Positions 62,752 through 63,702 of a DNA stretch of 64,000 nt are shown piece by piece. Position numbers and translations under genes: made by a program. The number at the start of each line of letters is the position of its first letter. Position 1 is the first letter of the stretch. Below the pieces are notes generated by a model. It ran no database searches and was not told the origin of the DNA. It worked only from the letters and a program-made list of their open reading frames with translations. Origin of the DNA: Escherichia phage S127 BCL3; the sequence record OQ626344. The stretch is one strand, 5' to 3'.

Positions 62752-63127
62752 TCATCAGATCTGCCATAGCGTCACCAACGAAGAGGACAACCACGTCGTT
62801 GACAGCGTCAGCATCATCTTTATTGATGTTGCTGAATTTGGGGCACACTGCAATGACCATATAGACCCCGTTGCCCAACTGAACAGTGCGTGTAGTGCAC
62901 ATTAGTGTGGTGCTTGTGCCTTCTTTAAAGGCAAATCCTTGCAGACGTTCTTCCAGAGAGTCACCTGTGGATTTCAACAAGGCAAGATCGCCCAATGCGT
63001 AGGTAGTGTCCTCATAGGTCAGTCCAGAGGTCAATGTTGCCTTCCCATCAGAAACTATAATAACCCCATCGGCACCGTCAAGCTCAGAGGCTTCAAAGAT
63101 ATTAATATCCCAAATGTTTTTCATCAC
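62723..63127 (-). CDS. hypothetical acidic protein
   Basis: 134 aa ORF. Confidence 0.45.
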   Translation of the reverse strand: MMKNIWDINIFEASELDGADGVIIVSDGKATLTSGLTYEDTTYALGDLALLKSTGDSLEERLQGFAFKEGTSTTLMCTTRTVQLGNGVYMVIAVCPKFSNINKDDADAVNDVVVLFVGDAMADLMNAGEAANED

Positions 63128-63444
63128 GCCTCCTCGTCATCTAATGAGTTGAAGATTTCACCGAAGTATTCTAAGACTTCCAGCTCACGGGTGGTGCAGA
63201 AAACACAGTCCCCGTTGTCATCTTCGATAACGGCCTCTTTACCAAGAACATCCACTTCAAATTCGTCGTTTAACAGAACGGAACCTGTGTAAACTTTATC
63301 TGCCGTGCAGTCCCGAAAAGCAGAGTCCTTCTCCAAGTAGTCTGGCTTAACCTTGGCTTTAATTCGTTGATATTGTTTGGTCATTGCTGTGGTCCCCTTT
63401 CGTTTTGATAGGGCCATTATATTAGGCCCTATCGCTATTGTCAA
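63124..63444 (-). CDS. hypothetical Cys-containing protein, paralogue of 63448-63702
   Basis: KPDYLEKDSAFRDCTADKVY / IEDDNGDCVFCTTRELEVL parallels KPECVANDRAFKDCTVGAIY / FKDDEGDSVWCTVNEVVFV. Confidence 0.45.
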   Translation of the reverse strand: MTIAIGPNIMALSKRKGTTAMTKQYQRIKAKVKPDYLEKDSAFRDCTADKVYTGSVLLNDEFEVDVLGKEAVIEDDNGDCVFCTTRELEVLEYFGEIFNSLDDEEA

Positions 63445-63447
63445 GTA

Positions 63448-63702
63448 TTAATGCTCAGGTTTTACAAAAACTACTTCGTTAACAGTGCACCAGACAGAAT
63501 CTCCTTCATCATCTTTAAAGGTAAGACACTGGGCTGAGTTTTCCAACTCATCGAGCTCTTCTTGTGATAAATAGGTCCCTTCTTCCAGAAGGGCTTTTAC
63601 CAGGGGATTCTCACAAAACTCTGCTTCATAAATTGCACCGACTGTGCAATCTTTAAAAGCTCGGTCATTTGCAACGCATTCTGGCTTCAAAGTAATTTTC
63701 AT
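63448..63702 (-). CDS. hypothetical Cys-containing protein, paralogue of 63124-63444
   Basis: 84 aa; see paralogue. Confidence 0.45.
   Translation of the reverse strand: MKITLKPECVANDRAFKDCTVGAIYEAEFCENPLVKALLEEGTYLSQEELDELENSAQCLTFKDDEGDSVWCTVNEVVFVKPEH

Follow-up and report, generated by a model that had tools for sequence, protein, structure and literature searches.

Genes A and B, two small adjacent minus-strand genes of Escherichia phage S127 BCL3 (OQ626344), are real tandem paralogues. Comparison across divergent relatives places their duplication at or before the base of the Vequintavirus-like group, showing it to be ancient. Their products are predicted to be SH3-like, five-stranded small beta-barrels and belong to a small, phage-only, uncharacterised domain family, which readily gives rise to tandem duplicates and accommodates two copies fused in a single chain. 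Coordinates are those of the window, i.e. the whole 64,000-nt stretch of this genome that was analysed, unless another genome or contig is named (Table 1).

Table 1. Positions of genes A and B, of the elements around them and of related copies elsewhere
Feature	Position	Strand	Description
Gene A	63448..63702	minus	ORF, 84 aa; pI 4.2; net charge -12; PHROG 12544
Gene B	63124..63384	minus	ORF, 86 aa; pI 4.2; net charge -12; PHROG 11936
Probable third family member	62168..62413	minus	ORF, 81 aa; pI 4.1; PHROG 4927
Putative A promoter	63753..63781	minus	sigma-70-type; TTGACA, 17 nt, TAAGAT; 10/12 consensus matches
Putative B promoter	63416..63444	minus	sigma-70-type; TTGACA, 17 nt, TATAAT; 12/12 consensus matches
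9-bp inverted repeat	63407..63433 (arms 63433..63425, 63415..63407)	minus	GATAGGGCC / GGCCCTATC; flanks the -10 hexamer of the B promoter on both sides
Two neighbouring copies, megetsur (Bonnellvirus, Autographiviridae)	megetsur_9 + megetsur_10		3-nt gap; pair precedes primase
Two neighbouring copies, T7-like contig L012 (45 kb)	5001-5207 + 5209-5415		primase on one side, helicase on the other
Two neighbouring copies, contig L011 (64 kb)	4728-4967 + 5001-5252		
Two-copy fusion P0030, contig L002	2179-2640		153 aa, almost no linker
Single copy: glasur, Providencia MTT, L023, L024, L026			
Single copy: Citrobacter Tr1			unrelated C-terminal extension

The earlier note on this DNA had proposed a tandem paralogous pair of small cysteine-containing proteins, on the strength of sequence blocks shared by adjacent minus-strand ORFs. 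Both ORFs are present, and every block that was quoted can be found in their translations: A carries KPECVANDRAFKDCTVGAIY and KDDEGDSVWCTVNEV, and B carries KPDYLEKDSAFRDCTADKVY and EDDNGDCVFCTTREL. Formal alignment bears out the relationship. BLASTP aligned A with B over 77 aa at 29% identity (E 8e-9), and the Smith-Waterman score was 90, as against 28±5.5 after shuffling (z 11.3; 0 of 5000 shuffles reached 90). When the 482 ORFs in the window that reach 40 aa or more were searched with phmmer, A and B were each other's sole significant match (E 1e-6 and 3e-7). The likeness extends to structure, with the AlphaFold model of B resembling the BFVD model of the A orthologue from Shigella phage CM1 at a TM score of 0.62 (E 7e-5). 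By contrast, the idea that the pair echoes a larger expansion on the plus strand is not supported, as no plus-strand relative of A or B was found among the window ORFs by phmmer, by the family HMM or by all-against-all BLASTP.

Each protein is a full-length member of its own PHROG: the phrog_12544 profile matches A at E 1.3e-57 over residues 1-84 of 84, and the phrog_11936 profile matches B at E 5e-55 over residues 1-85. Gene A is preceded by a Shine-Dalgarno sequence, AAGGAG, at 63717..63712. A purine-rich ribosome-binding site precedes the ATG at 63384, which is most likely the start of B, judging also from orthologues in divergent relatives (N-termini MKAQRIKAKVK, MEQKPYRVKATVK), the first Met of which aligns with this codon. 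Two upstream starts were considered and rejected. The TTG at 63444, given by a mechanical ORF list, belongs to the -35 hexamer of the putative B promoter, and the ATG at 63417 (97 aa), used in some GenBank records, overlaps its -10 hexamer; other records use the 63384 start. Annotation of B is accordingly inconsistent among the GenBank records examined, with lengths of 97-101 aa vs 86-90 aa. The stop codon of B shares bases with the start ATG of the gene that follows (TGATG), so that B is translationally coupled to that downstream gene and not to A. Across six Vequintaviruses, dN/dS against the others was 0.04-0.15 for A and 0.03-0.13 for B, values that show purifying selection on both coding sequences.

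The last 3 kb of the window are 93-97% identical to >110 genomes of Vequintavirus, a group of rV5/FV3-like E. coli myophages of ~137 kb, the closest match being phage NHEP1; the window itself is Vequintavirus DNA. In NHEP1, the counterparts of A and B are annotated as 'hypothetical proteins' and follow the DNA polymerase gene at a distance of ~1.2 kb, on the same strand, within a long series of small unannotated genes. Both genes are intact in 115 of the 116 matching phage records (tblastn). With the exception of one phosphatase, every neighbour of the pair falls into a PHROG without assigned function, so that genomic context offers no functional clue. Replication genes adjoin family members in four lineages: genes for DNA polymerase and primase-helicase in Vequintavirus, for primase and helicase in both L012 and megetsur, and for ligase in Tr1.

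Putative sigma-70-type promoters lie upstream of both genes. The -35 hexamer and the TAAGAT of the A promoter are conserved in four other Vequintaviruses. The B promoter, located in the 63-nt spacer between A and B, is likewise conserved in other Vequintaviruses, and a TTGACA...TATAAT arrangement is seen at the same position in two divergent relatives (L003 and L004). Promoter-like sites of the TTGACA type abound on the minus strand between 44 and 64 kb, and 33 consensus sigma-70 promoters have been reported in rV5, with no evidence of T4-like promoter classes (PMC3606486). Going by promoter consensus alone, A and B are likely to be expressed early by the host RNA polymerase. The inverted repeat around the -10 hexamer of the B promoter would form a hairpin in read-through RNA from the A promoter (predicted fold -17.4 kcal/mol, z -3.1). 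Its variants in phages Alma and phiWec196 change base pairs to G.T wobbles only, and L003 has an inverted repeat of other sequence at the same position. A 7-bp repeat around the -10 hexamer of the A promoter was dismissed as a conserved feature, being missing from four other Vequintaviruses.

The duplication had been taken to be recent. However, A and B are only ~30% identical, their pairwise alignment is broken by a gap of ~16 residues corresponding to a two-helix insert in the A model, and both copies occur in the same order in distant relatives. Four divergent Vequintavirus-like metagenomic contigs (L003, L004, L006 and L009) all preserve the succession of an A-like gene, a B-like gene, a 130-aa gene, a DUF7238 gene, an 85-aa gene and a ~410-aa gene. 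In these contigs the A orthologues are 55-66% identical to A of the window and the B orthologues 42-50% identical to B, and identity between A and B within a genome is 30-39%. A neighbour-joining tree unites the A orthologues in a clade (83% bootstrap), which is nested in a joint clade of Vequintavirus-type A and B sequences (89%). Taken together, the conserved gene order, the low identity between the copies and the separate A clade indicate that the duplication predates the divergence of these phages.

A distant third member of the family is probably encoded a short way downstream, by the ORF at 62168..62413. It was always the next-best match in the window to the family profiles (E 0.017 and 0.009), its orthologue in L003 matches the family profile at E 4.8e-5, and profile-profile comparison with the family gave a probability of 68% (E 4.8e-5, 50 columns). 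Its motifs LT.GKEY and DDDGDPITC stand in register with A and B, and in the profile-profile comparison T.GK.Y and DD.GD..C are the elements aligned in register. Pairwise similarity to A and B is weak (z 3.6 and 1.9), which makes membership probable and not certain. Scanning of the window and of NHEP1 from 64.5 to 129.5 kb brought up no members beyond these three.

The family is rare. A word-indexed search returned close relatives only. Profile searching with HMMER, run exhaustively over 1.84 billion representative proteins, gave 13 matches at E < 0.001, and a third search, for which the alignment was broadened, raised the count to 28 clusters, none of which carries a name or a Pfam domain. A census of related loci with a narrower alignment added five loci. 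Family members match PHROGs 12544, 11936, 17459 and 23195, none of which is functionally annotated. Sequence searches of Pfam, NCBIfam and PDB gave chance-level matches only (DUF7127, E 0.01-0.02; a cyclic-nucleotide-gated channel, E 0.5; 6-phospho-beta-galactosidase, E 0.018), and when 26 family members were scanned, the Pfam family of YorP, a prophage protein discussed below, did not appear even with E values up to 1 allowed. One of the 13 profile matches, a 1213-aa protein (P0028) with repeats judged HYR-like by eye, raised the question of a link to HYR domains. We rejected it: the individual repeats score 6-7 bits apiece (about 1e6 as a per-domain E), the overall E of 3.8e-8 arises from summing over near-identical repeats, and HYR is an Ig-like beta-sandwich as opposed to the SH3-like barrel predicted for B.

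Adjacent copies were also found in three other lineages, and in one contig two copies are fused (Table 1). The second members in L011 and L012 were recovered with a profile built without them (E 1.9e-10 and 1.3e-13). Judging from similar flanking genes, the metagenomic contig carrying the fusion, L002, apparently belongs to the same phage group as L011. In the tree, the two L012 copies are sisters, and the sequences of L002, L011 and P0043 make up a clade of their own (76%). This suggests either independent duplications or concerted evolution of the pairs in these lineages, the data being compatible with both. Within Bonnellvirus the partner of the family member is variable, differing between L022 and megetsur.

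The fold was predicted with more certainty for B than for A. Built on a 26-sequence alignment, the AlphaFold model of B has a pLDDT of 82.6 and a pTM of 0.69, with 5/5 models concordant, and consists of strands at residues 5-12, 31-37, 50-54, 60-64 and 68-78 plus one short helix (14-19). As predicted, these five antiparallel strands follow each other in SH3 order and close a small barrel. The A model is weaker (pLDDT 74, just 1/5 models above pLDDT 51) and shows the same strands, with helices at 33-40 and 47-56 added between strands 2 and 3 as part of an insert spanning about residues 30-57. B lacks the insert; it has a short acidic loop instead, as well as an acidic C-terminal tail. The predicted order of elements is a strand, a short helix with the 'AFRDCT' loop, a strand, a variable loop, a strand, a tight 'DDxGD' hairpin and two further strands. 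When either model was compared with PDB using Foldseek, no structure was significantly similar (all E >0.1). The best match was YorP (2heq; probability 0.89-0.94, TM ~0.45, E 0.14-0.33), and the top 50 were mainly SH3, Tudor, PWWP, PetP and YorP structures (best E 0.14, TM 0.3-0.5). It is the prediction together with this consistent type of top match that argues for an SH3-like assignment. Among predicted viral structures, the B model retrieved its own orthologue and the A orthologue, followed by small uncharacterised proteins of Edwardsiella, Klebsiella and Bacillus phages.

Across the wider family, in which all members are strongly acidic (pI 4.1-4.8), only D25, Y32, D55 and G58 (B numbering) are invariant, and C26, G29, D56, D59 and V61 are nearly so. 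In SH3 domains, the diverging turn and the distal hairpin pack together and nucleate folding. On that template, the present family would have RDCT.G..Y where the first loop ends and the diverging turn lies, and its DDxGD would match the distal hairpin. By this analogy, the conserved Asp, Tyr and Asp-Asp-x-Gly-Asp residues are most likely there to hold the fold and probably do not make up an active site. As for the cysteines, they are indeed present in both A and B, as the earlier note had it, but they are not diagnostic. Throughout the family the RDC motif nearly always retains its Cys, with Thr in two members, and the second Cys is conserved within Vequintavirus only, being absent or shifted elsewhere. 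As they are not conserved in register, the cysteines form no family-wide four-ligand metal site or disulfide and are incidental.

The A/B block is dispensable in a natural variant, L021, which is represented by three contigs and has a deletion running from the middle of A through the ORF at 62168..62413. Phage Alma has a 2-nt deletion causing a frameshift in A and an intact B, provided that its assembly is correct. In the databases, no fewer than seven versions of A carry a frameshift or have been shortened in the region of the helical insert. The stretch coding for the insert contains homopolymer runs and a 7-bp hairpin, and some of these versions may be sequencing errors.

How A and B act can be suggested only in outline. 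The reading we prefer, and to which we give an even chance of being right, is that they are old tandem duplicates that provide the phage with acidic, accessory SH3-like modules, expressed early, acting by non-catalytic binding and diverged in specificity. They would be made as strongly acidic soluble proteins of ~85 residues from a block of small minus-strand genes downstream of the DNA polymerase gene, presumed to be early. Since the conserved residues read as structural and not as an active site, we infer that the two proteins act by binding rather than catalysis. Specificity may be set at the two sites that account for most of the difference between the copies, namely the loop equivalent to the n-Src loop of SH3 domains, with the two-helix insert of A vs the short acidic loop of B, and the acidic tail of B. 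The two proteins would then probably bind a macromolecule of host or phage origin at surfaces that differ or complement each other, in the course of host take-over or counter-defence. As the family duplicates readily in tandem and tolerates fusion, A and B may work side by side as a two-module unit, although this is not required. No homology-based link to a target or an activity was found for either protein, all relatives being annotated as 'hypothetical'.

A stricter version, in which A and B form an obligate heterodimer equivalent to a single-chain two-domain protein of another phage, is possible but in our opinion doubtful. Adjacency of A and B is kept in every divergent Vequintavirus-like contig examined, the pairs in three other lineages are closely spaced (1-33 nt), the two copies in P0030 are joined with almost no linker, and small beta-barrel domains often act in tandem or as oligomers. 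However, adjacency is the default product of tandem duplication and therefore weak evidence of interaction, and B has a perfect promoter of its own and is translationally coupled to the next gene instead of A. Further to that, B is intact beside a frameshifted A in Alma, if the assembly is correct, a single copy is all that glasur, Providencia MTT, Citrobacter Tr1, L023 and L026 possess, and the partner is variable within Bonnellvirus. The size and charge (-12) of the proteins, the promoter-like sites suggesting early expression, the replication genes nearby in four lineages, dispensability in a natural variant and the frequent duplication and diversification expected of an arms race would also fit DNA mimics or acidic decoys that, like Ocr, Arn, Ugi or T7 Gp2, inhibit restriction, another defence or a host enzyme that handles DNA or RNA. 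We consider this unlikely: neither sequence nor fold matches known mimics or anti-defence proteins, acidity by itself is common in small phage proteins, and our searches of the Vequintavirus literature, including anti-defence and transcriptome work, returned no functional or expression data for A or B. Improbable to a slightly greater degree is a proposal that combines elements of both, according to which A and B, perhaps with the product of the ORF at 62168..62413, represent a previously unrecognised class of two-module acidic SH3-like inhibitors directed against host defence or a DNA- or RNA-handling enzyme, with the recurrent, independent duplications and the one fusion reflecting arms-race selection for a heterodimeric binder.

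The cysteines, as a zinc-ribbon-like site or a disulfide, and the Asp-rich DDxGD hairpin, as a calcium site, could be thought to point to metal-binding or redox proteins. C19 and C72 of A and the hairpin are invariant within Vequintavirus, and there is a weak structural match to the calcium-binding protein CcbP (probability 0.69). Nevertheless, we regard this reading as very improbable. Family-wide, two members have Thr in place of the first Cys, the second is either missing or does not align, four ligands in CxxC-type pairs are never present, and DDxGD, with Asp at positions 1, 2 and 5 and Gly at 4, does not follow the DxDxDG order of EF-hand-like calcium loops and is located in a tight beta-turn, a structural context that favours Gly and Asp. 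That A and B are chance ORFs or decaying remnants and not functional genes might be suspected from the several database versions of A with a frameshift or shortening in the insert and from the deletion of the block in one natural variant. It is scarcely credible in view of dN/dS values of 0.03-0.15, which contradict it, the presence of both genes intact in all but one of the 116 matching records, ribosome-binding sites and promoters on both genes, a confident fold prediction and retention of orthologues down to ~45% identity.

For annotation, the practical outcome is that the start of gene B can be corrected, that the pair should be seen as ancient rather than recent, and that the cysteines should be treated as incidental. 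Because it is apparently early, dispensable and repeatedly duplicated, the family is also a reasonable candidate for screens of accessory or counter-defence functions in the Vequintaviruses of the BASEL collection (Bas48-59). Should a target be found, the two-copy arrangement would make a neat case of modular small-barrel inhibitors; without one, nothing here is out of the ordinary for a large lytic phage, and the outcome is a modest and mostly descriptive annotation result.

Among proteins of known structure, YorP of the Bacillus subtilis SPbeta prophage (PDB 2heq) comes closest, being likewise a phage-encoded SH3-like barrel of ~84 residues. It differs in being 10-12% identical to A and B, with no sequence relation, and as a structural-genomics target which is itself uncharacterised it is silent on their mechanism. 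The barrels of SH3, Tudor, PWWP, KOW and PetP proteins are typically non-catalytic binding modules, often used in tandem, as in tandem Tudor domains. With these, the predicted A and B folds share the order of the five strands and the character of the connections, of which the first is long, the second variable and the third a tight hairpin. At the same time, A and B have no sequence similarity to them, lack the aromatic cage and the proline-binding residues, and possess a short helix in the first loop as well as, in A, the two-helix insert, with TM scores of 0.3-0.5. T7 Ocr and Gp2, T4 Arn and PBS2 Ugi are comparable in size, in their strong negative charge and in being dispensable and presumably early. 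The analogy is confined to function, as those proteins have other folds and match A and B in neither sequence nor structure. Finally, PHROGs lists 12544, 11936, 17459 and 23195 as separate unannotated families. The present analysis shows their common origin and a probable link to 4927, so that four, and probably five, separate PHROG families are joined into a single phage-only family with a predicted SH3-like fold.

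A natural deletion variant affects the small paralogous genes A and B and the genes that follow them. In contigs carrying the database protein P0013 (locus L021), a deletion equivalent to about 62130..63600 of the window has removed the 3' half of A, the whole of B, the 133-aa gene after it, the DUF7238 gene and the ORF at 62168..62413. We therefore conclude that the whole block from A to ORF 62168..62413 is dispensable. Within it, the stop codon of B overlaps the ATG of the 133-aa gene in a TGATG at 63122..63126, which suggests that B is translationally coupled to this gene, a member of the function-unknown family PHROG 8284. 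One assembly joins the two in a single reading frame, with residues 1-65 of B followed by the C-terminal portion encoded by the 133-aa gene (P0021, 131 aa; window 62723..63384). The fusion looks like the product of a deletion between the 'CTTR' motifs found in both genes.

A 9-bp inverted repeat holds the -10 hexamer of the perfect B promoter in its loop, and G.T wobbles are the sole changes to this repeat among related phages. The comparison extended to the A-B spacers of the divergent relatives L003 and L004; in L003 the corresponding position is occupied by a repeat whose sequence differs. Window-wide, 7 of the 36 TTGACA-type sites have their -10 flanked by a perfect repeat of 6 bp or more, where 1.2 would be expected and 200 shuffles gave at most 6.

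The helical insert of A contains a 7-bp hairpin and homopolymer runs, and exactly this stretch carries a frameshift or is shortened in at least seven variants of A in the databases (P0004, P0006 to P0013); in phage Alma, gene A has a 2-nt deletion after GAAGAAGGG. These variants may be either real variation or sequencing error. Two alleles of B exist among Vequintaviruses (L014 to L017), one reading AVIEDDNGDCVFCT...NSLDDEEA and the other ATIKDDQGDYVCCT...TSLDDYLDDEEA; they differ in the acidic tail and in the hairpin that the family conserves. Among the six genomes compared, the second form accompanies Ile rather than Leu at position 49 of A, a sample too small to call co-variation.

Over the A-B region, 16 GenBank 'Campylobacter phage' entries (MG0656xx) are >90% identical to E. 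coli Vequintaviruses; their Campylobacter host label looks doubtful.

Besides A/B, BLASTP found only two paralogous ORF pairs in the window, neither showing any relation to A or B.

Repeats and further paralogous pairs in the window
Feature	Position	Strand	Basis
7-bp hairpin CCCTTCTGGAAGAAGGG, inside gene A	63577..63593	minus	sequence
B promoter with 9-bp inverted repeat, -10 in its loop	63407..63444	minus	sequence
Paralogous ORF pair	32527..32760 and 36084..36311	plus	BLASTP E about 1e-6
Paralogous ORF pair	36571..36969 and 38776..39171	plus	BLASTP E about 1e-6

Elsewhere, the A/B-family domain lies within a 385-aa ORF of an IMG/VR contig (L025, 2180..3337). The Bonnellvirus-like contig L022 encodes a weak 80-aa relative without the DDxGD motif (1908..2150), upstream of a megetsur_9-like gene which, unlike its counterpart in megetsur, is not followed by a megetsur_10-like gene.
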